A stretch of 64,000 bases of DNA from Minisyncoccota bacterium (GCA_036405175.1 DASWYC010000002.1:57892-121891), one strand, 5' to 3'. Shown: positions 40,263 to 64,000, counted from the first letter of the stretch. Notes: generated from the letters alone by a model not told the origin. Made by a program: numbers and translations.

Positions 40263-40296
40263 TCGCTCAAGTTAAAACGGATATAAATTCTTACAA

Positions 40297-40427
40297 AATA
40301 ACTCCTGATGAAGCAGCGGATCAAGTCCTATTCTCGGTGTATTTGAGGCACACAATAAAGCAGAGTTTACACACATTAAAAAGTGCCTCAAATACACCTC
40401 CGAAACTGCTTCATCAGGAGTTATTTT
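40297..40427. repeat. 131-bp nested inverted repeat: outer 21-bp perfect stem plus inner 15-bp perfect stem
   Basis: AAATAACTCCTGATGAAGCAG...CTGCTTCATCAGGAGTTATTT and GTGTATTTGAGGCAC...GTGCCTCAAATACAC, seen directly. Confidence 0.6.
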
Positions 40428-40464: not shown

Positions 40465-41505
40465 GTGAAATCTATGATCAGAAAGGTTTATTGCACAACA
40501 GGTTTTTATAATGGACATATTGAAATGTCCTTTAAAATATGTAGAATACGAGTAATGGACAAATCACCACTCGCAAATTCTAATGGACAGGATAATCATG
40601 GTAATGGACAAGAAAATGTATGGTTGGAATTTATAACGGACAATAAAGATTTTCTTGTGTCCTTTAGAACGCGTGTCCGTAAGATTTCTTCAGCACTCTA
40701 TATGCTGGGTAACCTTTGGCAGGAAGATGACTTTGGTAAACACTTACATTCGGTGTCCCTTACTATTTTGAGTGCTTCAAAAATTCCTGTAACGGACAAT
40801 CGTCACACTATCATGAATCACTTTATGTCCGTTAAAGAGTCAGTTGAGTATGCATTGTCTCTTATTATCTTTGGCGCAGAAGCAGGACTTCTTGCCACAT
40901 CAAACGTAACCATGATTACGCCGTTTTGCATTGCACTGCTTGGTGACCTCCACGATCTTGAAAATACCCTTCCTGCACTTTTTAATACTTCACGCGTTAA
41001 TAATGCTAAGAGTACTGCTCAAGCGCCAGATGCGAGCGCAGATCTGGCCAACATACTTACTAAGGATCACGGAGATTTCTTTAATCAAGCTGGTTCAGAA
41101 CGCAAAGAAATTCGTGTTCCTGTTCAGCCGCCTACATATATACATACCCCAGCATCAGCAGCAGCTGAAGTTCCTGTGGCTCAAGATATCCACACACTAA
41201 TGTCGCCAACAACGGCTCCGGTTACTGCCCAAGAATTTGTTCAAGCTCGAACCGTTCCAGTTGCTCAAACACAATTGCAACAGCCAGTGCGTACTCGCCA
41301 GGAGGCTACAACTAATCAATATCGGGAAGCTATTTTTGCTGCCATCAAAGCATCAGAACAACAAACACCAAGTGAATTGCAGGCTCAATTTCCAGCATTA
41401 AGCGCAAAGCGTATTCAGCGAGAGCTCCAGCAATTGGTGCAAGAAAAACGGGTCATTAAGAAAGGGGAAAAGCGCTGGGTTTCCTACCATTTGAACGCTT
41501 CATAG
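40465..41505 (+). CDS. hypothetical protein with Q/P/T-rich linker and C-terminal winged-helix-like DNA-binding module
   Basis: C-terminus AKRIQRELQQLVQEKRVIKKGEKRWVSYHL resembles a wHTH. Start uncertain. Confidence 0.35.
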   Translation: MKSMIRKVYCTTGFYNGHIEMSFKICRIRVMDKSPLANSNGQDNHGNGQENVWLEFITDNKDFLVSFRTRVRKISSALYMLGNLWQEDDFGKHLHSVSLTILSASKIPVTDNRHTIMNHFMSVKESVEYALSLIIFGAEAGLLATSNVTMITPFCIALLGDLHDLENTLPALFNTSRVNNAKSTAQAPDASADLANILTKDHGDFFNQAGSERKEIRVPVQPPTYIHTPASAAAEVPVAQDIHTLMSPTTAPVTAQEFVQARTVPVAQTQLQQPVRTRQEATTNQYREAIFAAIKASEQQTPSELQAQFPALSAKRIQRELQQLVQEKRVIKKGEKRWVSYHLNAS

Positions 41506-42080
41506 GATCCTCACAAAATCCCTTGCAGGATAAGCTCAAATGTGGCATAATCTTAGTGTAATATCATGCTCGTAAACACGTCACAACACATAGCAAGAGT
41601 CAGTAGTTTGTAACCCATTGGGTTGTGGAATACCATCTCTTGAATAACTTCATTTCATTGGTATATACTTAGAACACCTTCGTGGACACACAGTGCTTTG
41701 TATCAATAAAGTATTACTGTGCCCATGAGGCACCATCATAAGGAGTAACCTTGTGATGAATAATTACCAACCAAATACATCAGGTTAATAATTATTACTC
41801 TGGTAAAGAAATCGGAAAGACCAAAAAAGATTTCCTTTTTGTCTGATATCTTTTCTTTTGCGAACTTTATCAATTCTTATTTTGGTTACACACATTGAAA
41901 AAAGGTGGACTTATTATTAAGTCGAATCCACCTCGTGTGTAATAAAAGACAGTTTTCTATTGAACTATCTGAAGGTACAACACACTACGACTAGATTGAC
42001 CGTCTGTCGATAGCGGTGAATTTCGTATTGCGTTTCAGATGGAGAGGTAGATTAATGTCTTGTTATGTACATTACAAGAT

Positions 42081-44111
42081 ATGACTAGTAAATCAATCAA
42101 GAACGTGATTGGTCTCGTAGCTATTACTGCTCTTGCGTCAGTTTCATTGACCGCAAACGCAGCATCAGCTTACACCCACTCACGTACTCTTAAAGTAGGT
42201 TCACGCGGACTCGCTGTTGAATCACTTCAAGATGCTCTCAACGCATGTTGGGATCTAGGGCTCACTGCCGATGGAATCTTCGGTAAGGGAACCCGTGCTG
42301 CTGTTATGGCTGCACAAAAAGACCTCGGTCTTAAGGCCGACGGAGTTGTAGGACCAATGACTGGTGCTGCAATCGAGGATTGTGATGGAGCTGTAGTAAC
42401 ACCTACTACCCCAACCACACCTACTACCCCAGGAACTTTGACTCCTGGAGCAGAACTCCGCACTCGTAACTTCCAAATCCGCAACGCATCTAACTCTTCA
42501 GTAGAAGAAGGAGCACGTGGAGTAGAAGTTGCTCGCGTACAGTTCGATACTCAGTACTCAGATGCTAAGCTCGAACGAATTGACCTTGTGGCAACTCCTA
42601 ACGGAACTGTGCCATCACCAACTACACCATGGCGTGTATTTGATCGCGTAATGATCAAGGTAAACGACACTCAAGTAGCTTCATTCGATACTGCTAACGC
42701 AACTATGTGGGATGAAGTTTCATCAGGTGTATACCGCCTTCGCCTTTCAGGACTTACTGCTATCCTTCCAAAGGATCGCACACAAAACATCTCAATCCTT
42801 GCTGACATCAATTCTGGTGCTAACGGAGGATCAGGCGATGTTAAGTGGGATATCTCACTCGGAGCTGACGCTCAGGGAATCCGTATGCTTGACCAGGCTG
42901 GAATTACTCAATACGTAGGACTCGCTTCTACTTTTACCGGAACCACTTTTGGAACCGATAAGGTTGCAAGCAATGCTGCAGTATTGACTATTAAGAACCT
43001 CGGAGGTCTTTCAACTGTACGCGTAACAGCTAGTTCAAATGACCCTGTATCAAAGACCTTGATGGCTAACAAGAACACTGCTTCATCAGCAATGCTTGTA
43101 CACTCATACACCGTTAAGGCTGAAGAAGGAGATATCAAGATCAAGACCGTTCCAGTTAAGCTTGACATCACCGAAGCTTCAGGAGGAACACAGGCAACTG
43201 TTTCTTCAACTGACTACGGAGCACTCTATAAGGCTGTTATTGACTCAACTTGGATTGAAATCAACGGAACCCGTTTTGACTCAATCACATCAAAGTCATC
43301 AGCTGACAACACCACTTACGAAACTGATACCATCAACTTCGACGTTAACCGCAACTTCACTATTACTAGTGGATCAACTGCAACTATTAACGTTTATGTA
43401 AAGCTTGCGTCAATGCCTGATAACTCAGGAAATCCAAACGCAAACTCAGGTGCAACTATCAAGTCTTCAGTAACTGGAACCACTTTGGCTCTTGAAACTG
43501 GAATGTATGATGCTGTACCAAGCAACTCAATCACCGGTTCAGCTACTGGATATGTTCACACTATCCGTACATCAGGTGTTGTTGCAACCATGGGAACTGC
43601 TTCAATCGCACGTACCACCAACAACAGTGGACAAACCACTGCAGTTGAATACACCATTCCGTTGACTCTTACCGCATCTGGAAACACCTTCTATATCGGA
43701 CAGTCAGCAGAATTTGCTGCAACCTCAACCCTTGCCGCAGATGGAGCATCGGCTAAGGCTCTTGCATTCACCTTGCAATCAGCTTCAGCAGCATCAACAG
43801 ATATCACTTCTGTAAACAACTCAGTGTTTACAAACGGAACTGCTGATGGAACTGTTATCTCAACCCTTTCATCTTCAAACGCTTCAATCCAAAATCTTGG
43901 ATACCGTCTTGATGATGGATCAGCTAAGAACTTTACTCTTAAGGTTACTGCAACCGCAGCGTCAGACGGAACAACCGACTCACTCCGCGTAGCACTTAAG
44001 ACCCTCAAGTTCTACAATGCTGACACTCTTGCTGATGGAGCAGGTGAAACTGTATTCACCCTTCTCCCAGTTGAGAACTTCCGCACCGAATTCCAAACTC
44101 TTACTCGCTAA
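42081..44111 (+). CDS. secreted cell-surface protein: signal peptide, peptidoglycan-binding (PG_binding_1-like) domain, TTPTTPTTP linker, large T/S/A-rich beta-rich domain; candidate abundant envelope/S-layer-like protein
   Basis: LKVGSRGLAVESLQDALNA...GLTADGIFGKGTRAAVMAAQKDLGLKADGVVGPMTGAAI matches the PGBD pattern. Codon usage resembles rplL (highly expressed type). Confidence 0.55.
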   Translation: MTSKSIKNVIGLVAITALASVSLTANAASAYTHSRTLKVGSRGLAVESLQDALNACWDLGLTADGIFGKGTRAAVMAAQKDLGLKADGVVGPMTGAAIEDCDGAVVTPTTPTTPTTPGTLTPGAELRTRNFQIRNASNSSVEEGARGVEVARVQFDTQYSDAKLERIDLVATPNGTVPSPTTPWRVFDRVMIKVNDTQVASFDTANATMWDEVSSGVYRLRLSGLTAILPKDRTQNISILADINSGANGGSGDVKWDISLGADAQGIRMLDQAGITQYVGLASTFTGTTFGTDKVASNAAVLTIKNLGGLSTVRVTASSNDPVSKTLMANKNTASSAMLVHSYTVKAEEGDIKIKTVPVKLDITEASGGTQATVSSTDYGALYKAVIDSTWIEINGTRFDSITSKSSADNTTYETDTINFDVNRNFTITSGSTATINVYVKLASMPDNSGNPNANSGATIKSSVTGTTLALETGMYDAVPSNSITGSATGYVHTIRTSGVVATMGTASIARTTNNSGQTTAVEYTIPLTLTASGNTFYIGQSAEFAATSTLAADGASAKALAFTLQSASAASTDITSVNNSVFTNGTADGTVISTLSSSNASIQNLGYRLDDGSAKNFTLKVTATAASDGTTDSLRVALKTLKFYNADTLADGAGETVFTLLPVENFRTEFQTLTR

Positions 44112-44144
44112 TCGCGTTTAAGCTGGAACTAGGTTCTGGATAAC

Positions 44145-44174
44145 AAAAAACACCCTTCGGGGTGTTTTTTGTTA
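44145..44174 (+). terminator. strong terminator AACACCC TTCG GGGTGTT + TTTTTGTT (UUCG tetraloop); identical copy at 45826
   Basis: Seen directly. Confidence 0.75.
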
Positions 44175-44386
44175 TGGGAAAAGGGGAATTTATGGGTAAG
44201 GATATTGGGAAATATAGTAGGGGATATGAAGCCCTAAACCCTCTATATAACTGTTAAAAACTCCGTAAAGTCTTTATAAATAAGGAATATTAAGAGTACT
44301 TTACAAATACATCTAAGTATGATATAATAATACTATCAAATTACTTATTAATACAATAATATATACATTTTAAATCTTTTAAGAGC

Positions 44387-44782
44387 ATGAAAAAGAGAAC
44401 AGGTTTATTTGTGATTTTGGGCCTTGCCATTAGTTCTATCTATTTGGGGTTGTCAATTAATTCGGTGCCTCAATATTGGAGAAGAGCCGGTTTGATTATT
44501 TTGTTTTTCGTAACTATGTTACTGCAGAGCTGTATGCCGGGGATGTACAGTCCTTATGGGAACTCATACGGATATCAGCAGCCTTACGGTAATCCATATG
44601 CTACTGGGAGACCTTATTGCCCTCCTCCGGTGCGGGGAAATCCAAGCGCCTACGGAGACGCAGCATACTGGTATAATTATCAGCGTTTGGCACGAAATGG
44701 TGGCCTAAACATAGGTCTTCAGCCACAGCGAAGATTCAGAACGGTAATGGAGGCTGTTGATGCCTTGGGTTACTCAAGATAG
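44387..44782 (+). CDS. hypothetical membrane protein with Tyr/Gly/Pro/Asn-rich low-complexity tail
   Basis: Two hydrophobic segments then SPYGNSYGYQQPYGNPYATGRPY. Confidence 0.35.
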   Translation: MKKRTGLFVILGLAISSIYLGLSINSVPQYWRRAGLIILFFVTMLLQSCMPGMYSPYGNSYGYQQPYGNPYATGRPYCPPPVRGNPSAYGDAAYWYNYQRLARNGGLNIGLQPQRRFRTVMEAVDALGYSR

Positions 44783-44945
44783 GCCCTTAAATTGATTATC
44801 TTAATTTTAAACTAAGCGTACTTTTGTACGCTTTTTTATTTTCTCTTTAATAATAATTCACCATAAAATCATTAAGTAGGCAAGTAGACGCAATGCCTAA
44901 ATTTTGATTTCATTAATGTATACCAAGAATAATTCTGAAATCTTT

Positions 44946-45824
44946 ATGAACACCCCAACCAAGTCTGCATCACTTGTTCGCCAGATTGCTACCCTTGCAG
45001 GTATTGTTGTACTCGTATTTGCTATGGCAATGTCATCAGCTGATGCTCAATCAGTTCGTCGCGTATTTGTAACCTTGCCAGATGGAACCGCAACCGACAT
45101 GACCATCACCGAGGCATATCAGCGTAACCTTGTTAATACTATGAATGGTCAAAGCGGCCAAACCGGAATCGGCGGACGCAAAGCCCTCGCAACTACCGTT
45201 AACGCAGAAGGAGTTACTACTTCATCAGCAACTATGGTTGGAATCGTTCGTCCTGCAGATGGATGTGTTGCAGGTACCGCTACTCAAGGATTTGAATTTG
45301 GATACGGATCTGAATGGACCAAGGCATCACCTCGCGTAGAAGACGTGAATGATGGAGTAATCATGTACACCTTGCGTGATGTTCCAGCAGGAAAGACCTA
45401 TTCATATCGTGCATGGGTAACTGATTGTACAGGAACCACCTATGGGTCAACTCGCAGTGTAACTACTCGTGTACCAGCTCCAGCGGTAACCGTACCAGCA
45501 CAAGCTATTGATGGAGGTTCAGTAGTTGTTCCAGCAGGAACTTCAACCGAAGATACTAAGAAAGATACTTCTCGTATTGATTTTGGAAACCTCTTCAATA
45601 AGAAAGATTCAACAGATTCAGAAACAACCACTCCTACTACTGAAACCAAGAAAGCAGATGTAAAGACCGAAACCAAAGCTGATGCTAAGGCTGAAGATGC
45701 TGCAGTAGAAACAGAAGCAGCTCCAAAGAAGAAAGGCGGATTCTTCCAGTGGCTTTTGAAGGGAAACACCTCAGAAGCTCCAGCAGATACTGAAGAAACT
45801 CCAACTGCATCTTCAAACAGCTAA
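44946..45824 (+). CDS. secreted T/S-rich hypothetical protein with acidic/K-rich C-terminal tail
   Basis: Start at MNTPTKSAS with signal peptide. Ends with the same terminator as the 42081 gene. Confidence 0.5.
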   Translation: MNTPTKSASLVRQIATLAGIVVLVFAMAMSSADAQSVRRVFVTLPDGTATDMTITEAYQRNLVNTMNGQSGQTGIGGRKALATTVNAEGVTTSSATMVGIVRPADGCVAGTATQGFEFGYGSEWTKASPRVEDVNDGVIMYTLRDVPAGKTYSYRAWVTDCTGTTYGSTRSVTTRVPAPAVTVPAQAIDGGSVVVPAGTSTEDTKKDTSRIDFGNLFNKKDSTDSETTTPTTETKKADVKTETKADAKAEDAAVETEAAPKKKGGFFQWLLKGNTSEAPADTEETPTASSNS

Positions 45825-45825
45825 T

Positions 45826-45857
45826 TTTAAACACCCTTCGGGGTGTTTTTTGTTATC
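45826..45857 (+). terminator. terminator identical to 44145..44174
   Basis: 27-nt identity AACACCCTTCGGGGTGTTTTTTGTTAT. Confidence 0.75.
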
Positions 45858-45914
45858 AAAATTTATTGTTAGTTTGAAATACCCAAACCAGATGAAGAAT
45901 GATATAGTGAATAT

Positions 45915-46789: not shown

Positions 46790-47008
46790 GTCCCAAACGA
46801 GGCTTTTTTACTGCAGAACGAGTTCTCTTGGCAAAATAGCTATTTTATAGTATGATCTTCCCATACGGCCAAAGAAAAGAGGCACGGAATCGCCACGTAA
46901 AACTGGTTATCCCATAAGCCCTCTCGAGGTATAACAAATACATTGTAAGCGGCGGCCGTGGTCGCAAATCAATTTTTACCAGCGATGTGCACTCGCGCAT
47001 CAATTTAT
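46790..47008 (+). promoter_or_regulatory. putative rplJL leader region (GC-rich stems GCGGCGGCCGTGGTCGC / GCGATGTGCACTCGCGC)
   Basis: 220-nt untranslated region upstream of rplJ. L10(L12)4 autoregulatory leaders are common in bacteria. No covariance check done. Confidence 0.3.
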
Positions 47009-47506
47009 ATGGCTACAAGTAAAGCTAAAAAAGAAGAGACATTGTCTGATCTTAAAGCTGCTTTCACAAACGGAGCTTCAGCAACATTCGTATCATTTGC
47101 TGGTGTAGACGTGGCGTCATCAACTGACCTTCGTCGTTCACTTGCAGGAGAAGGCGTATCATATCAAGTTGCAAAGAAGACCCTCATTGCAAAGGCAGTA
47201 CAGGATGGTGGATTTTCTGGAGACATGCCTGAATTGCCAGGAAATATTGCGGTAACCGTATCGCAAAACGATCCAACAGCATCAGCACGTGTACTCTACA
47301 ACTGGTTTAACGATAAAAAAGAGATGAAAGAACTCTTTACAATCGTTGGAGGTATTTATGAGGGAAAGCTCATGAATGCTACCGAGATGCAGGCTATTGC
47401 AACGATTCCAGACATTAAAACCCTTCGTGGAATGTTTGTTAACATTATCAACAGCCCAATTCAATCTATGGTCATCGCACTTTCAAAGATTGCGGAGGCA
47501 AAATAA
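47009..47506 (+). CDS. rplJ: 50S ribosomal protein L10
   Basis: Start set at MATSKAKKEETLSDLKAAF. Typical L10 pattern; immediately upstream of rplL. Confidence 0.85.
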   Translation: MATSKAKKEETLSDLKAAFTNGASATFVSFAGVDVASSTDLRRSLAGEGVSYQVAKKTLIAKAVQDGGFSGDMPELPGNIAVTVSQNDPTASARVLYNWFNDKKEMKELFTIVGGIYEGKLMNATEMQAIATIPDIKTLRGMFVNIINSPIQSMVIALSKIAEAK

Positions 47507-49835: not shown

Positions 49836-50507
49836 ATGGATTTTCTCAGTATTTTCACAGGAACTCTCTCTGTCCTCTGGATCGGAGTAATTGCTTCTGC
49901 GACTAAAATCATTGGAGCTATCCTTATTTTCATCATTGGATGGCTTCTTGCATCACTTGTTGAGAAAGCAATCGAAGAAATCTTTGAAGCTATCAAGCTT
50001 GATCGTCTTCTTGCTCATACCGGTCTTGATACTGCAGTATCAAACGCTGGATACAACCTCAACTCAGGAAAGTTTGTTGGTACCATTTTTAAGTGGCTTA
50101 TCATCATCCTCTTCCTTAAACTTGCTCTTGGTGTAGTAAATCTTACCCAAGTAGATGTATTCCTTGATAAAATTACCAGCTACATTCCATCAGTGATTGT
50201 TGCTACTGTAGTTTTGTTTATTACCTCAATCGTTGCATCAACACTTGCAAAGATCGTAAAGGGAAGCTCAAAAGCTATCAAGCTTGGATCAAGCAACTTT
50301 ATTGCAAAGATCGTAGAAGTTTTGGTGTGGGTATTTGGAATTGTTGTTGTTCTTTCTGAGCTCAACATTGCACAAAACATTGTGGTTCCAGTATTCCTCG
50401 GAATTGTATACGGAATTATCGCTATGCTCGCAATTGCAGGAGGACTTGCATTCGGACTTGGCGGAAAAGAGCACGCTTCAAAGTGGCTTGATAAAGTTGA
50501 ACGCTAA
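49836..50507 (+). CDS. conserved TM-helix repeat membrane protein (PF05552-like)
   Basis: Internally repeated TM helices (IIGAILIFIIGWLLASLVEKAI / IAKIVEVLVWVFGIVVVLSELNIAQNI). Highly-expressed-type codon usage. Confidence 0.4.
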   Translation: MDFLSIFTGTLSVLWIGVIASATKIIGAILIFIIGWLLASLVEKAIEEIFEAIKLDRLLAHTGLDTAVSNAGYNLNSGKFVGTIFKWLIIILFLKLALGVVNLTQVDVFLDKITSYIPSVIVATVVLFITSIVASTLAKIVKGSSKAIKLGSSNFIAKIVEVLVWVFGIVVVLSELNIAQNIVVPVFLGIVYGIIAMLAIAGGLAFGLGGKEHASKWLDKVER

Positions 50508-54352: not shown

Positions 54353-55315
54353 ATGAATGAATCACCTATAAAAAAAGAACCAAGTCGTCATGGATTTGGT
54401 AGAGGATTGGTTGAAGCCGCACGAATACATCATAACGTGGTTGGTTTGTGTGCTGATTTGACTGAGTCTACACGGATGAAGGAATTTAAAGAAGAGTTTC
54501 CAGATCGATTTTTTGAGGTTGGTGTTGCTGAACAGAATATGGCTGCTGTTGCATCTGGATTGGCAGCTTCAGGATTTATTCCAGTCATTGCATCGTATGC
54601 AATGTTCTCTCCAGGACGTAATTGGGAACAAATTAGAACAACCATTTGTTATAACAATCAGCCGGTAATTATTGCTGGTCATCACACCGGTCTTTCTGTT
54701 GGTTCGGATGGTGGGTCTCATCAAGCACTTGAAGATATTGCACTCATGCGTGTGCTTCCTAATATGCGTGTAGTGAGTCCATGCGATAGTGTTGAAGCGA
54801 CTCAGCTTATGAAATTATTGGTTCAAAATCCAAAACCGTCATATATGAGATTGGCACGTAGTGAGACAGAGATTTTAACACAACAGAGCGATGCAGTTGA
54901 TCTGTCATCTAATACTATTTTGTATCAAAGCAGTAATACTGCTGAGGTTGTAATTATCTCAACCGGAGTAATTGGGGTTGAGGCTCGCTATGCTGCTCAA
55001 GCGTTAGCACAGCAAGGTGTGAGTGTGGCTTTGTTAAATGCCCGCATCTTAAAACCATTTCCTGTTGAGCAGTTGCGGTTTTTGATGGAACAATTTGGTG
55101 TAACTACTATTGTGACCGTTGAAGAACATCAAAGAAACGGTGGGCTCGGTTCAATTATTGCTGAATTGATTGCTGATAATGGATGGTCACAGAAGTTGTT
55201 ACGAATTGGAGTGGATGATCAGTTTGGGCAATCAGGGACTGTTGAAGAATTATATAAAGCGTATGGTTTGGATAGAGATTCTTTGACAGAAAAGATTAAA
55301 GGTTTCATTGGCTAA
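54353..55315 (+). CDS. transketolase, C-terminal (pyrimidine-binding) subunit
   Basis: FEVGVAEQNMAAVASGLA...; follows the N-subunit with a 3-nt spacer. Confidence 0.9.
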   Translation: MNESPIKKEPSRHGFGRGLVEAARIHHNVVGLCADLTESTRMKEFKEEFPDRFFEVGVAEQNMAAVASGLAASGFIPVIASYAMFSPGRNWEQIRTTICYNNQPVIIAGHHTGLSVGSDGGSHQALEDIALMRVLPNMRVVSPCDSVEATQLMKLLVQNPKPSYMRLARSETEILTQQSDAVDLSSNTILYQSSNTAEVVIISTGVIGVEARYAAQALAQQGVSVALLNARILKPFPVEQLRFLMEQFGVTTIVTVEEHQRNGGLGSIIAELIADNGWSQKLLRIGVDDQFGQSGTVEELYKAYGLDRDSLTEKIKGFIG

Positions 55316-55321
55316 AATTCT

Positions 55322-55447
55322 TTGACTCGAAACTTTTTCATTCACAGTGGCCTCTATTGGGCCTACGCTCGACGATTCGATATATTCGCCCAATGAGCTC
55401 ATCATCGGTCGTCTCCGCGACTGCTCATTCAAAAAGTTTCGAGTCAA
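55322..55447. repeat. 126-bp element bounded by 17-bp perfect inverted repeats (TTGACTCGAAACTTTTT / AAAAAGTTTCGAGTCAA) with an inner 7-bp hairpin (ATTGGGC/GCCCAAT)
   Basis: Seen directly. Confidence 0.5.
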
Positions 55448-55610
55448 ACTCAATCTGGGAAATGTCTTATAGAATATCTCGATCACATACTTTCAAGACA
55501 GTCTCGGAGACATATAAAAAGCACCGTCGTATGATTATTCATTAATGAGGTGCTTTTTATATGTTGAGAATAGGGCTTGACCCGCTGTCTTGAAAGTATG
55601 TGATAAAAAC

Positions 55611-56063
55611 CTACTCACTTTCAGCAACGCGCACAATCAACTTCTTTCCAAACCCAAAGTATTGTCCGGCATTTAAGAAGATAAGCGAAAGCAAAATCAG
55701 AATATAAAAGATATATTCAGAAATAAAGAGTGAGCCGTTCGTTAAAAATGGGAATTTTTCAATGAGGGGAATGTAATAAAGTGTTACCGCAACGATTCCA
55801 AAAATAGATGCAAGGCGCGTACTAAATCCAATAATCAAACAAACACCCAGCACAAGAATTCCCCAAGAATTCAAAAAGTGTACCCATTCAAGAATATCAG
55901 GTGTGGTAAACCAGCTATAAAGTGATTCAAATGTATTCGTACGTTGAATATAGGGAACAGCACTCCATGTTTTGTCAGAAATATGCAACCATCCATTCCA
56001 CGCAAATAACCACCCCATACAAATACGGAGTGTTGCAATGAGCCAAGTAGGAAGACTATTCAT
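55611..56063 (-). CDS. DoxX-family membrane protein
   Basis: 4-TM protein with RICMGWLFAWNG pattern typical of DoxX. Confidence 0.55.
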   Translation of the reverse strand: MNSLPTWLIATLRICMGWLFAWNGWLHISDKTWSAVPYIQRTNTFESLYSWFTTPDILEWVHFLNSWGILVLGVCLIIGFSTRLASIFGIVAVTLYYIPLIEKFPFLTNGSLFISEYIFYILILLSLIFLNAGQYFGFGKKLIVRVAESE

Positions 56064-61370: not shown

Positions 61371-61886
61371 ATGAAACATAGAATACTTAAGCTTCGAGTT
61401 GTCGTCCCAGGGAATATAAACCTGAATACTCTTATTCCAAATACAATGATGAAGTTGGAGAAAAAACAAAAGAAGAAGGGTGTTTATGCATATGGTAGCT
61501 CACTCCTCAGTAAGCCTGCAGTGCCAAAGGGTTTATTTCCAGGCAAAACCTACAAGGTGATTATCATTTCTCGAGAAAGTGTTGCCGTAAATGAAGACTC
61601 AAGTAAGCTGTATTATCAGGGTCAAGAATACCTCTGGTTCGGGGCTCATGGGTTCTGTATTCTGGCGAGTTTTTTATCAAAAAAGATGAAATCTAAAATC
61701 GGAGAACAGGAAAGATTAATATCTTTTGGAGAAAAGATGCCATATGAAACTTTTGATGAAACAAAAGTGGATAACAGGTTGGCTGCAATGTATGTTACGA
61801 CTTCTCGTAATATTTTCCAATTTGTTATACCTGAGTGCGGAAGTAATCAAAGAAGGGACATGCTGGTTGCTTTTAGGCCTATTTAA
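61371..61886 (+). CDS. hypothetical protein
   Basis: 171-aa ORF between rnc and smc, followed by a long hairpin (61890..61928). Confidence 0.3.
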   Translation: MKHRILKLRVVVPGNINLNTLIPNTMMKLEKKQKKKGVYAYGSSLLSKPAVPKGLFPGKTYKVIIISRESVAVNEDSSKLYYQGQEYLWFGAHGFCILASFLSKKMKSKIGEQERLISFGEKMPYETFDETKVDNRLAAMYVTTSRNIFQFVIPECGSNQRRDMLVAFRPI

Positions 61887-61956
61887 ATAGAAGGATCACC
61901 TACATAACTATGTAAGGTGATCCTTTTTGCTTAACTCGTGATACAATAACAACAAC

Positions 61957-64000
61957 ATGACCGCGCTCAAACGCCTTGAAATGGAGGGTTTTAAATCATT
62001 TGGAAAGAAAGTTATCCTCCAATTTAACACACCTATTACGGGTGTTGTTGGGCCTAATGGGTCAGGAAAATCAAATATTGTGGAGGCATTCCGCTTTGTG
62101 TTTGGAGAACAATCAATGAAATCAATGCGTAGCGATGCGGGAGCAGATTTGCTTTTTCAAGGTGCAGGTACCAAAGCTACAGAGGCTTACGTATCAATTA
62201 TTTTTGAAAATGTTTCAATTAAAAACAAAGCACTCCTTTCAGATATTAGTGCGCTGTTGGAAGGTGATGAGTTGGAAATCAAACGTACTATTACATTGGA
62301 TAAAGGTTCACAGTATTTTATTAACGGAACAAATGTGCGTCTTAAAGATGTGACGGCATTGGCTGCTGCACTTTCTTTGGGAATTGGAAGTCATCATATC
62401 ATTTCACAAGGTGAGGCGGATAGGATTATGTCTGCAACGGCACGTGAGCGTAAGCTCATGATTGAGGATTCTCTTGGGTTGCGCATCTATCACATTAAAA
62501 TCAAAGAGACTGAGAAAAAGTTGGATCAGGCACTGATGAATGTGCGTGAGTTGGCAGCAAAAAAACAATCAATCATTCCAATCTTTAATGATCTTAAAAA
62601 ACAAGTTGAAAAGATTGAGTTGGCACAATCACTCAGAACAGAATTACAAACGGCGGCATCAGTGTATTTTTCATTATTAGAAAAAAGTTTGTCCGAGGAG
62701 AGCAAAAAGAACTCAGAAGAGTATGGTGTGATTTTGCAGGAGCTTGCAAAAGTTGAACAGGAAAAATCAATCAAAGAAGAATCACTTATTGCAAAAAAAA
62801 GCAGCATGACCAAGCGGGTTACGAATGTTGAACTTGAAGAATCAATTGAACAACGCCGTAATGATATACGGAATTGTGAACGTGATAGTGATGCGCTTAC
62901 CATGAAAATTGATTTTGCTATGAGAGAGGCAGAAAAGCTTGTAAAAAAAATGACCCATCAAAATCATATTCACTACACAATTTCTCATGAAGAATATGAA
63001 GTATTTCAGTCTGTTCTTAAGCACATTGAACAGGCCTCAACACTTGAGCAGATAAAAACTATTTTAAATAGTGCGGATTTTGAAACATGTAAAAAAGTTT
63101 TTAGCTCGCAGCAGGATAGAGTTGCAAAGCAGGATTTTGAAATTGATATCCAGAATTATCGTGATGAGGCAACGCAGTTGGAAGAACAAAGAAATGCATT
63201 AACAGAAAAGTTGCGTGGACTTCAGGCGGCATATCAGGATTTGATTAATCAAAAAAAGCAGGATGAGCAAGCCTTTGTTGAAAGTTTTTCTCAGATTGCA
63301 GATGATGAACGTGCGGTGATGCAGTTACAGCAGCGCGTAATGGAGCTCATGCAGCGCAAAAATATGTTGGATATGGCGCGTAGTAACGTGGCACATAAGC
63401 AGGAAGAAATGAATACCTTTAAAGAGTATATTGGTGCATATGTTGATCTTGCTCAGGAGATAAACAATGACGATGCTCAAAAGTTTACCGGTAAAGAACT
63501 GGGTGCACTTAAGCAGCAGTGTGAACGTTTGTGCTACAAAATTGAAGATATGGGAGGTGGAGGTGGCGGAGATGTGATGCATCTGTTTGAAGAAACTCAA
63601 AAAGAACTTGATGTTATTGCAGGACATAGTGATGATACAAGTCGTGCCGTTGATGAACTTCAAAAGATAATTGCTGACTTGCAGGAATCACTCAAACAAG
63701 AATTTGAAGAAGGACTAGAAGCGGTAAATAATTCGTTCAAGCATAATTTTGTAACCCTCTTTTCTGGTGGTGATGCACGTATTGTGATATTGAAGAGTGA
63801 GGATGAGGACGGCGTGTCTGAGGGAATTGATATTGACGTTGCGTTGCCTAAGAAAAACATTACCTCACTCGCAATGCTTTCAGGAGGAGAGCGTGCGCTT
63901 ACCTCGATTGCGCTATTGTTTGCACTCTGTTCGTTGACTCCGCCACCATTCTTAGTGCTCGATGAAACCGACGCTGCACTTGACGAAGCAAACTCAGCAC
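61957..64000 (+). CDS. smc: SMC-family chromosome partition ATPase with short coiled-coil and no recognisable hinge (3' end beyond window)
   Basis: N-terminus LEMEGFKSFGKK...GPNGSGKSNIVEAFRFVFGEQSMKSMRS. C-terminal head ...LSGGERALTSIALLFAL...FLVLDETDAALD only about 640 aa later. Open to window end in frame. Not in the ORF track because no stop falls inside the window. Confidence 0.8.
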   Translation, partial: MTALKRLEMEGFKSFGKKVILQFNTPITGVVGPNGSGKSNIVEAFRFVFGEQSMKSMRSDAGADLLFQGAGTKATEAYVSIIFENVSIKNKALLSDISALLEGDELEIKRTITLDKGSQYFINGTNVRLKDVTALAAALSLGIGSHHIISQGEADRIMSATARERKLMIEDSLGLRIYHIKIKETEKKLDQALMNVRELAAKKQSIIPIFNDLKKQVEKIELAQSLRTELQTAASVYFSLLEKSLSEESKKNSEEYGVILQELAKVEQEKSIKEESLIAKKSSMTKRVTNVELEESIEQRRNDIRNCERDSDALTMKIDFAMREAEKLVKKMTHQNHIHYTISHEEYEVFQSVLKHIEQASTLEQIKTILNSADFETCKKVFSSQQDRVAKQDFEIDIQNYRDEATQLEEQRNALTEKLRGLQAAYQDLINQKKQDEQAFVESFSQIADDERAVMQLQQRVMELMQRKNMLDMARSNVAHKQEEMNTFKEYIGAYVDLAQEINNDDAQKFTGKELGALKQQCERLCYKIEDMGGGGGGDVMHLFEETQKELDVIAGHSDDTSRAVDELQKIIADLQESLKQEFEEGLEAVNNSFKHNFVTLFSGGDARIVILKSEDEDGVSEGIDIDVALPKKNITSLAMLSGGERALTSIALLFALCSLTPPPFLVLDETDAALDEANSA

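Follow-up and report, generated by a model that had tools for sequence, protein, structure and literature searches.

Bacteria of the Candidate Phyla Radiation (CPR), or Patescibacteria, make up a large share of bacterial diversity, and their envelope is still described as poorly understood. An apparent surface layer (S-layer) has been seen on Candidatus Nealsonbacteria by cryo-electron microscopy. Here we set beside the systems described so far a locus on the + strand of a 64,000-nt stretch from a Minisyncoccota bacterium (GCA_036405175.1, DASWYC010000002.1:57892-121891; hereafter the window), whose first gene (gene 1, 42081..44111, 676 aa), preceded by a long structured leader, is a candidate gene for an S-layer or major surface protein.

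According to Kuroda et al. (2024; PMC10936435), genes for proteins with a peptidoglycan-binding domain (PGBD) are among the five most expressed signal-peptide genes of three Paceibacteria, and these authors read the highly expressed PGBD proteins as host-attachment factors. One of them, PMX_810_sub_00350 of Ca. Yanofskyibacterium, a signal-peptide protein of 692 aa (2079 nt) that contains a PGBD, belongs to the top five expressed secreted proteins, has the highest expression values of its neighbourhood and is preceded by a 343-aa hypothetical protein (Table S2 of that study). A preprint (10.1101/2024.05.28.596244) proposes Patescibacteria S-layer candidates of about 1130-1270 aa, with six immunoglobulin (Ig)-like domains, and of 643-727 aa, with three. 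The latter include Yanofskybacteria GMX57981.1 (692 aa), which is very probably PMX_810_sub_00350 of Kuroda et al., Nealsonbacteria DGGOD1a UMX47672.1 (727 aa) and Vogelbacteria A0A1G2QP48 (643 aa). As reported there, the three-domain protein forms in silico (AlphaFold-multimer) a p6 hexagonal pyramid lattice of 13.5 nm, to be compared with an observed p6 layer of 13 nm; the six-domain candidates (e.g. Nealsonbacteria A0A1G2EN61) have an 18.5-nm cell and are highly expressed in two Minisyncoccaceae, and the Yanofskybacteria genome is without a homologue of the six-domain protein. Outside this phylum, the S-layer genes of Lactobacillus have a long stabilising 5' untranslated region (5' UTR), two promoters and biased codons (PMC3666127).

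In our view the product of gene 1 is probably the main protein on the surface of a Paceibacteria (CPR/Patescibacteria) cell, and an S-layer subunit is the most probable form of it. The preliminary description of the locus had already suggested an abundant wall-anchored surface protein, and the protein architecture, the codon bias, the leader and terminator, the synteny in 12 of 12 loci, the divergence rising toward the third Ig-like domain and the literature all support this; its remark that such a protein is functionally uncharacterised for CPR cells has been only partly true since 2024 (PMC10936435; 10.1101/2024.05.28.596244). The product of gene 1 is identical to the NCBI entry 'MAG TPA: peptidoglycan-binding domain-containing protein [Candidatus Paceibacterota bacterium]'.

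Architecture, family and codon usage of gene 1

The protein begins with a signal peptide (aa 1-29, 42081-42167) whose n-region (MTSKSIK), hydrophobic core (NVIGLVAITALASVSL) and c-region (TANA/AS) were recognised by inspection as being of the Sec type, and which lines up with those of 29 homologues, directly before a conserved AYTH motif. It is followed by a PG_binding_1 domain (aa 43-97, 42207-42371; Pfam E 4.4e-13) and by a disordered linker rich in Thr and Pro (aa 104-130, 42390-42470), with TTPTTPTTP at aa 107-116. An AlphaFold2 model built on a 30-sequence alignment (mean predicted local distance difference test score, pLDDT, 76.8) gives a helical PGBD, a disordered linker and three Ig-like beta-sandwiches, D1 (aa 131-290, 42471-42950), D2 (aa 291-482, 42951-43526) and D3 (aa 483-676, 43527-44108), so that the C-terminal 545 aa are all-beta in the model. 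The sandwiches themselves occupy about aa 131-281, 297-480 and 484-676 of the model. The composition (T 14%, A 12%, S 10%, G 8%), Pfam and the model agree with the succession of signal peptide, PG_binding_1-like domain, TTPTTPTTP linker and beta-rich T/S/A/G region that had first been read from the DNA, and structure prediction followed by Foldseek resolves the T/S-rich part into the three Ig-like sandwiches.

Pfam recognised PG_binding_1 alone in the protein, PG_binding_3 being below threshold, and did not find the SLH (PF00395) or CWB2 (PF04122) anchoring domains. A profile of 30 family members matched nothing but PGBDs among PDB sequences, PHROG matches were restricted to aa 27-121, and no catalytic domain was found in the remaining 545 aa by Pfam, PDB-sequence or PHROG searches. 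There is no LPXTG motif anywhere in the sequence, and the C-terminus (...LLPVENFRTEFQTLTR) is without a hydrophobic tail. With Foldseek, the model matched tandem Ig-like surface proteins (E 1e-10 to 1e-7); the best matches were adhesins (antigen I/II (AgI/II) C-terminal domains, PrgB Ig-like domains and MSCRAMMs), with TM-scores of 0.1-0.2.

A first homologue search gave about 30 full-length relatives of 570-700 aa (22-32% identity), those with a name being Paceibacterota, Patescibacteria or Moranbacteria. When 1.84 billion cluster representatives were searched exhaustively with a profile, the best 150 hits listed (E<=1e-134) were nearly all full-length, in proteins of roughly 550-800 aa, except for two longer proteins matching via repeated PGBDs only; a further 4053 hits were obtained at E<=1e-30, some of them through PGBD repeats only. 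A profile search of genome contigs with a 12-sequence alignment, seeded on the PGBD motif, returned at least 7 true family loci together with about 70 unrelated PGBD proteins. The close-clade alignment found one PGBD fragment and nothing else in metagenome contigs, and a homologue search with the C-terminal domains alone gave 10 hits, swamped by low-complexity words.

Eleven related loci were fetched for comparison (L007, L010-L012 and L014-L020; 12 loci with the window). L007 is the closest relative of the window, while the gene 1 protein of L010 is 29% identical. The gene order is kept in 12 of 12 loci. RecA, a small open reading frame (ORF) and FtsK, all three on the minus strand, are followed by the upstream gene that we call up346 or its homologue, an ORF-poor spacer of 440-1080 nt, and gene 1. 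Across the related loci RecA is 72-95% and FtsK 46-93% identical, and outside L007 the gene 1 product is 25-30% identical, a pattern that marks gene 1 as a vertically inherited, fast-evolving core gene. Between the window and L007 the protein is 65-69% identical overall, but this identity is unevenly spread: 85% in the PGBD, 86% in D1, 67% in D2 and 48% in D3, against 95% for RecA. The dN/dS ratio of gene 1 for the same pair is 0.28, that of RecA, FtsK and the M48 peptidase 0.05-0.10. Such a divergence rising toward D3 fits D3 as the outward-facing part of the protein.

The codon usage of gene 1 sets it apart as well. By the codon set that the preliminary description had singled out, rplL (0.75), the msc-like gene at 49836 (0.66), gene 1 (0.65) and gene 2 (0.60; described below) are the top four of the 63 ORFs of the window, from which all codon statistics derive; the set is nevertheless not confined to rplJ/rplL and the gene at 49836, as had been stated, since L11, SSB, NusG, EF-P, S6 and RecA are also biased, more weakly. 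With L11, L10, L7/L12, S6, EF-P, NusG and SSB as the reference set, the codon adaptation index (CAI) is 0.78 for gene 2 (rank 2 of 63) and 0.74 for gene 1 (rank 6 of 63, z +1.9; third among the non-reference genes of the window), the mean of the non-reference ORFs being 0.585 +/- 0.082. On the first principal axis of relative synonymous codon usage gene 1 is the extreme (1.60), followed by the msc-like gene (1.01) and rplL (0.91). The bias is of the classical kind, with C-ending two-fold codons and AAG favoured: AAG, ATC, AAC and TTC reach 0.89, 0.71, 0.85 and 0.63 in gene 1, against 0.35, 0.19, 0.30 and 0.20 in the remaining non-reference ORFs. The higher local GC that had been remarked upon is real (0.46 against a window mean of 0.397), but its source is different from what a codon effect would give: the GC content of third codon positions (GC3) is not raised (0.34 in gene 1 and 0.29 in gene 2, within the 0.24-0.43 of other ORFs), and the excess thus comes from Thr, Ala, Gly and Ser codons, that is, from amino-acid composition.

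The msc-like gene (49836-50507, +), referred to earlier as a 'TM-repeat' gene, has a CAI of 0.75. Its protein is 100% and its DNA 97-99% identical to L007, with a dS of 0.083 where neighbouring genes show 0.34-1.2, which would reflect either exceptional synonymous-site constraint or recent recombination between lineages.

The leader of gene 1 and its putative promoters

The 575 nt upstream of gene 1 (41506..42080, +) form a structured and conserved leader. As had been noticed at the outset, this region is ORF-free and has several hairpins: no ORF of at least 40 aa was found on its + strand, its minimum free energy (MFE) is -145 kcal/mol against -110 +/- 6 for shuffled sequences (z = -5.45), and its last 450 nt reach z of about -6.4 to -7.6. 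The alternative raised at the time, that an unannotated gene lies here, is not supported: besides the lack of such an ORF on the + strand, comparison with a relative showed no conserved one, and no small ORF is common to the leaders of the window and L010. Rfam gave no match for the leader, whether at the gathering score over the whole window or at E<=10 over 41400-42200. Background is provided by 91 windows across the 64 kb (mean z -0.82 +/- 1.56), one of which alone is as low.

From 41619 to the ATG the leader is 96.1% identical to L007 (K = 0.040), which is as slow as the non-synonymous sites of RecA; for the same pair of loci dS is 0.65 in RecA, 0.77 in FtsK, 0.83 in gene 1 and 1.18 in M48, and overall DNA identity in 150-nt windows is 82 +/- 9%. 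In L010, long blocks of the leader are nearly identical although the gene 1 protein is 29% identical. A consensus fold of the window, L007 and L010 (RNAalifold) has 130 pairs, with 90% of cells paired, and contains 14 compensatory pairs, a number that slid-partner controls (0-4) and column shuffles (0 of 500) do not reach. The 450 nt 5' of the orthologue fold with z of -6.1 to -9.9 in 12 of 12 loci, and the + strand is usually more stable than its complement across the loci, with many G-U pairs, both of which point to an RNA of the + strand. The primary sequence itself changes from clade to clade: a leader profile (nhmmer) matched in the window, L007/L008 and L010 and was not found in L011-L093, and leaders are alignable solely within sub-clades. 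In one of these, L011 and L012 are 74% identical in the leader, 48% in the gene (DNA) and 60% in the upstream gene.

Four hairpins, all on the + strand, deserve individual mention. Hairpin domain 1 (41678..41730; outer stem 41678-85/41723-30, inner stem 41689-41721, RNAalifold helices 2-4) has three pairs with compensatory double changes in L010, and the hairpin with a conserved AGUAA loop (41734..41758) is the best-supported helix, as 8 of its 10 pairs have changed on both sides and yet remain paired among the window, L007 and L010. The long hairpin GUUACACAC...GGUGGA...UCCACC...GUGUGUAAU (41885..41943) has an outer stem (helix 10) that is the same in the three loci, with several unpaired cells in helices 11-12 of L010, and the hairpin GAUUGACCGUCUGUCGAUAGCGGUGAAUU (41994..42022, helix 17) is likewise invariant among them, its TGTCGA core being still alignable in L011 and L012. 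The invariance of the hairpin 41885..41943 gives no covariation evidence, yet it shows strong sequence constraint.

Two promoter-like sites lie in the leader and are conserved, with variable spacers. P1 (41523..41551, +) combines a -35 TTGCAG (41523-28), a 17-nt spacer and an extended -10 TGgCATAAT (41543-51), and its hexamers are kept in L007 and L010 (TTGCGA-17-TGgTATAAT). P2 (41640..41669, +), obtained from a consensus scan, has a -35 TTGAAT (41640-45), a 16-nt spacer and an extended -10 TGgTATATAct (41659-69); in L010 its hexamers are kept while the spacer sequence varies, the pattern expected of a promoter. The consensus scan found no promoter-like site within 290 nt of the gene 1 ATG. 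We infer a 5' UTR of about 405 nt from P2 (predicted start near 41675) or about 520 nt from P1. Hairpins at the 5' end are known to protect mRNAs from 5'-end-dependent decay, and the predicted P2 start would place the helix 41678-41730 within a few nt of the RNA 5' end.

Around the start of gene 1 (42041-42084), the only sequence resembling a Shine-Dalgarno (SD) site is GGAGAGG (42041-47). It stands 7 nt before another ATG (42055) that opens a 9-codon upstream ORF (uORF; MSCYVHYKI, 42055-42084), whose TGA overlaps the ATG of gene 1 (ATGA). L010 has kept neither the SD-like GGAGAGG nor the ATG of the uORF. The sequence CTTGTTATGTACATTACAAG at 42058-42077 is a near-palindrome and abuts the gene 1 start codon.

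Structured regions were also seen elsewhere in the window. Two control windows fold well beyond their shuffles, 55301-55750 (z -6.9), which covers the gap between the convergent ORFs 54353..55315 and 55611..56063, and 61601-62050 (z -5.6); both are possibly further structured RNAs or clusters of terminators. The region upstream of rplJ (46844-47092) shares 94-97% identity with L007. An L10 autoregulatory leader would be expected to show such conservation, yet the Rfam L10_leader model remains below its gathering threshold there.

Neighbouring genes, terminators and the variable cassette

Directly 5' of the leader lies up346 (40555..41505, +; 316-346 aa depending on the start), a homologue of which occupies the same position in 11 of 11 related loci; the FtsK and RecA genes lie beyond it, on the opposite strand. 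The protein consists of an N-terminal helical domain, a variable low-complexity linker and a C-terminal DeoR-like winged helix-turn-helix (wHTH). Its homologues share an N-terminal K-I-x-x-A-L-Y-M-V-T-D and, in the winged helix, SEKTIQRELxxLVxEGxIxKxGSKRWSxY, and 7 of 12 members have a Pfam HTH_DeoR match (best E 7.5e-7); sequence searches gave no relative of solved structure. The protein is 69% identical in L007, and the CAI of its gene is average (0.565). From its synteny, we regard up346 as a putative DNA-binding protein that may act as a partner of the locus or regulate it.

A near-perfect hairpin of about 130 nt (40295-40425, +) separates the wHTH gene from ftsK (start 40262, - strand), with an outer stem AACUCCUGAUGAAGCAG.../...CUGCUUCAUCAGGAGUU and an inner stem GGUGUAUUUGAGGCAC/GUGCCUCAAAUACACC. 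Its MFE is -63.5 kcal/mol against -23.8 for shuffled sequences (z = -12.3), and Rfam gave no match. Its identity to L007 is 93-95%, and at least one of the differences looks compensatory. Possible explanations are a small RNA, a repeat element, or a cruciform or operator belonging to a divergent promoter region.

Downstream, the ORF, promoter and terminator scans distinguish three transcription units on the + strand: gene 1, an ORF at 44387..44782 and gene 2 (44946..45824, 292 aa), followed by an M48 peptidase gene, rplJ and rplL. The picture of a two-gene locus given in the preliminary description had to be abandoned, as the additional ORF, with its own promoter-like site and terminator, sits between the two genes.

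Gene 1 ends in terminator T1 (44141..44175, +), a perfect 15-bp hairpin (UAACAAAAAACACCC-UUCG-GGGUGUUUUUUGUUA) with a cUUCGg tetraloop (dG -20.5 kcal/mol), whose A-tract/U-tract symmetry could allow termination in both directions. Gene 2 ends in T2 (45829..45856, +), AAACACCC-UUCG-GGGUGUUU with a U-tract and an 8-bp core stem (dG -12.7). The two were originally described as sharing an identical 27-nt sequence, and an exact 27-mer is indeed found at 44149-44175 and 45830-45856 (0 expected by chance); the identity even extends to 28 nt, from 44148 and 45829, the second coordinate having been given one position too low (45828). The idea that this terminator marks a regulon finds no support: no further copy of the shared sequence was found in the 64-kb window, and in L007 the terminators after gene 1 and gene 2 resemble each other without being identical. 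The gene 1 terminator of L010 repeats the design with another sequence. T1 and T2 are probably ordinary strong terminators, identical through local homogenisation.

The variable cassette between the genes (44300..44842, +) comprises a promoter-like site (44300-44328, TTTACA-17-TATAAT with TG, 11 of 12 matches), the ORF 44387..44782 (131 aa, with an N-terminus resembling a transmembrane segment or lipobox, and rich in Y, G and P) and a terminator found by the terminator scan (44814-44833). The ORF has a CAI of 0.394 (rank 62 of 63) and a GC3 of 0.43, the highest. The slot after T1 is a variable insertion site (44176-44945 in the window, 8950-10000 in L007, 8050-10190 in L010), filled in L007 by an unrelated 247-aa Cys-rich secreted ORF and in L010 by an IS200-type Y1 transposase with small ORFs. 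The cassette does not belong to the surface-protein system.

That gene 2 encodes a second secreted T/S-rich protein, as first described, agrees with its predicted signal peptide (..SSADA/QS) and its composition (T 16%, A 12%). The product has a probable small beta-sandwich core at about aa 80-175 and a disordered tail rich in T, K, E and D, its AlphaFold2 model being poor (pLDDT 47.7). There are two matching database clusters only, the protein itself and a 79% identical relative of the L007 lineage, besides a weak match in L010 (37% over 100 aa), and neither Pfam nor PHROG gave a match. Gene 2 is a lineage-restricted orphan, highly codon-adapted and connected with gene 1 by position only. It may be a surface accessory, but no functional tie to gene 1 was seen.

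In two of the more distant related loci (L011 8159-14046; L012 8040-13917) the gene 1 orthologue is directly followed by a gene for a membrane protein (about 670 aa) of the Wzy_C family, and genes for a nucleotide-sugar epimerase, a dehydratase and an aminotransferase are also among the next ones. This suggests a glycosylation cluster for the surface protein and, together with the Thr/Ser richness of the protein, can serve as a lead.

A candidate surface protein and its leader compared with known systems

The mechanism that we propose for gene 1 is as follows. The pre-protein would be exported by Sec and its signal peptide cut off, and the N-terminal PG_binding_1 domain, clearly present, would attach it non-covalently to peptidoglycan, presumably that of the cell itself. 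The three Ig-like sandwiches would make up the outer layer, spaced out by the flexible linker rich in Thr and Pro, which is possibly O-glycosylated, D3 being the most distal and exposed part as well as, by the observed gradient, the fastest-evolving. High output would be ensured by two predicted tandem promoters of the sigma-70 type, by a leader of about 400-520 nt whose stable and selectively maintained hairpins most likely shield the mRNA from 5'-end-dependent decay, by codons that within the window are translationally optimal, and by what is, from its sequence, a very strong intrinsic terminator. The leader may carry regulation too, and the always-adjacent DeoR-like wHTH protein is, by synteny, a candidate dedicated regulator. 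Gene 2 would be a separately transcribed, codon-adapted and clade-specific secreted protein.

Several points weigh against this interpretation. The abundance of the gene 1 product and its assembly into a lattice are both inferred, and codon adaptation is derived from 63 ORFs of one 64-kb window. The fold matches are to generic Ig-like sandwiches, which adhesins use too, and the tie to GMX57981.1, UMX47672.1 and A0A1G2QP48 rests on architecture, length and gene neighbourhood. For the leader, the covariation comes from three sequences, two of them close, and the sequence is unalignable beyond the clade of the window, L007 and L010; the start sites are predictions, and transcripts of the upstream gene may read through, or the leader may contain an RNA of its own.

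An abundant wall-anchored adhesin, with the PGBD on the wall of the episymbiont and the Ig-like domains binding the host surface, has been suggested for PGBD proteins of Paceibacteria that parasitise archaea. It would account for the best Foldseek matches (AgI/II, PrgB, MSCRAMMs), for the reading that Kuroda et al. give of similar-looking PGBD proteins as host-attachment factors (PMC10936435), and for the 48% identity of D3 to L007, which fits a determinant of host specificity. The TM-scores of 0.1-0.2, however, indicate generic tandem sandwiches only; a single-copy, universally syntenic gene with the most extreme codon bias is better explained by a bulk structural protein, and the lattice spacing modelled for such an architecture, as given in the preprint, matches the observed S-layer (10.1101/2024.05.28.596244). 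We hold an adhesin to be unlikely, bearing in mind that adhesin and lattice roles are not mutually exclusive and can coexist. It is very improbable that gene 1 encodes an enzyme remodelling or lysing the peptidoglycan of its own or the host wall. It is true that such enzymes (endolysins, DD-carboxypeptidases, lytic transglycosylases) are where PGBDs typically occur; all PDB and PHROG sequence matches are to the PGBD of such enzymes, and JGI labels some relatives 'peptidoglycan hydrolase-like protein', but these matches span aa 27-121 only, and the other 545 aa form three non-enzymatic beta-sandwiches. Equally hard to credit is a recent horizontal acquisition of genes 1 and 2 as the cause of their composition and codon usage, which the GC of 0.46 against 0.40 and the variable slot between the genes, with its IS200-type transposase in L010, might bring to mind. 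We rejected it as contradicted by synteny and GC3: GC3 is not raised, the same core neighbourhood accompanies the gene in 12 of 12 loci at 25-30% protein identity, the genes for ribosomal proteins and translation in this genome favour the same codons, and the truly atypical ORF is the 131-aa insert.

The leader region might also act as a functional RNA in its own right. It would then be a separate non-coding RNA, small or long, or else a leader that responds to a ligand or protein and gates S-layer synthesis, possibly with the wHTH protein. S-layer 5' UTRs measure in the low hundreds of nucleotides, and the leader of gene 1, at 400-520 nt, is longer. Even L010 shows no change in hairpin 41994-42022 or in the outer stem of 41885-41943, and such invariance, exceeding the needs of hairpin stability, suggests specific binding sites; the near-palindrome abuts the start codon, and the wHTH gene is always adjacent. 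On the other hand, the region matches no Rfam family, no internal terminator was detected in the leader, and the motifs are not shared past the immediate clade, so that a ligand or protein site would have to co-evolve. We judge this function to be rather unlikely. A broader idea, which we put forward tentatively and with more doubt than confidence, is that the spacer of 400-1000 nt represents an undescribed class of long structured cis-RNA, an obligatory partner of the S-layer gene, which together with the wHTH protein would form an envelope control module and not just a passive stabiliser.

As for an S-layer subunit encoded by gene 1, synteny, codon bias and the divergence gradient constitute genomic evidence independent of the transcriptome and modelling work of 2024, and back the PGBD plus three-Ig family as the major surface protein of Paceibacteria. 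The leader might be put to use as a cassette for expression or stability, or help to locate surface-protein genes in other CPR genomes, and the wHTH protein is a candidate regulator in a phylum with almost no regulation known.

Among the systems described, the three-Ig class of Paceibacteria is the closest. Gene 1 shares with it phylum, class, size range (676 aa), signal peptide, PGBD and three Ig-like sandwiches, and a hypothetical protein of about 340 aa directly upstream (343 aa there, 316-346 aa here); high expression was measured there, whereas here it is deduced from codon bias. Gene 1 thus matches in architecture, size and signal peptide a three-domain class that is itself a recent proposal. 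While proteins with this domain make-up have been put forward as surface proteins before, the leader and the wHTH neighbour appear to be undescribed, and neither they nor the RecA-FtsK synteny were found described in the available portions of PMC10936435 and 10.1101/2024.05.28.596244. The six-Ig candidates (A0A1G2EN61) resemble the gene 1 product in their tandem Ig-like domains and proposed hexagonal pyramid lattice, but have six domains, double the length and a cell of 18.5 instead of 13.5 nm. Tandem Ig-like domains are also found in the csg-type S-layer glycoprotein of Haloferax volcanii, which belongs to another domain of life and relies on lipid/membrane anchoring instead of peptidoglycan binding; one might speculate that the Thr-rich linker and composition of the gene 1 product suggest O-glycosylation. 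Unlike the sortase-anchored Ig-fold adhesins (MSCRAMM, antigen I/II), the gene 1 product has no LPXTG and hydrophobic tail, and unlike PGBD peptidoglycan hydrolases it has no attached catalytic domain, its matches ending at about aa 121.

The genetic organisation finds a parallel in slpA of Lactobacillus acidophilus and L. brevis, which has the same expression logic of two promoters (predicted ones in gene 1), a structured long 5' UTR, biased codons and an efficient terminator (PMC3666127), and whose protein is likewise split into wall-binding and assembly modules. There is no sequence or domain relationship between the two, and anchoring here would be by PG_binding_1 to peptidoglycan, not by SLH, CWB2 or a basic C-terminal domain on wall polysaccharide. 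S-layer mRNA leaders (the untranslated leader sequence, UTLS, of L. acidophilus slpA) combine stable secondary structure with a hairpin at or near the 5' end; the gene 1 leader has structure under selection, and its hairpin would lie near the 5' end if transcription starts at the predicted P2 site. The leader of gene 1 is much longer, however, and its conservation far exceeds that of the encoded protein. Most economically, it can be regarded as an unusually elaborate version of the stabilising leaders of other S-layer genes.

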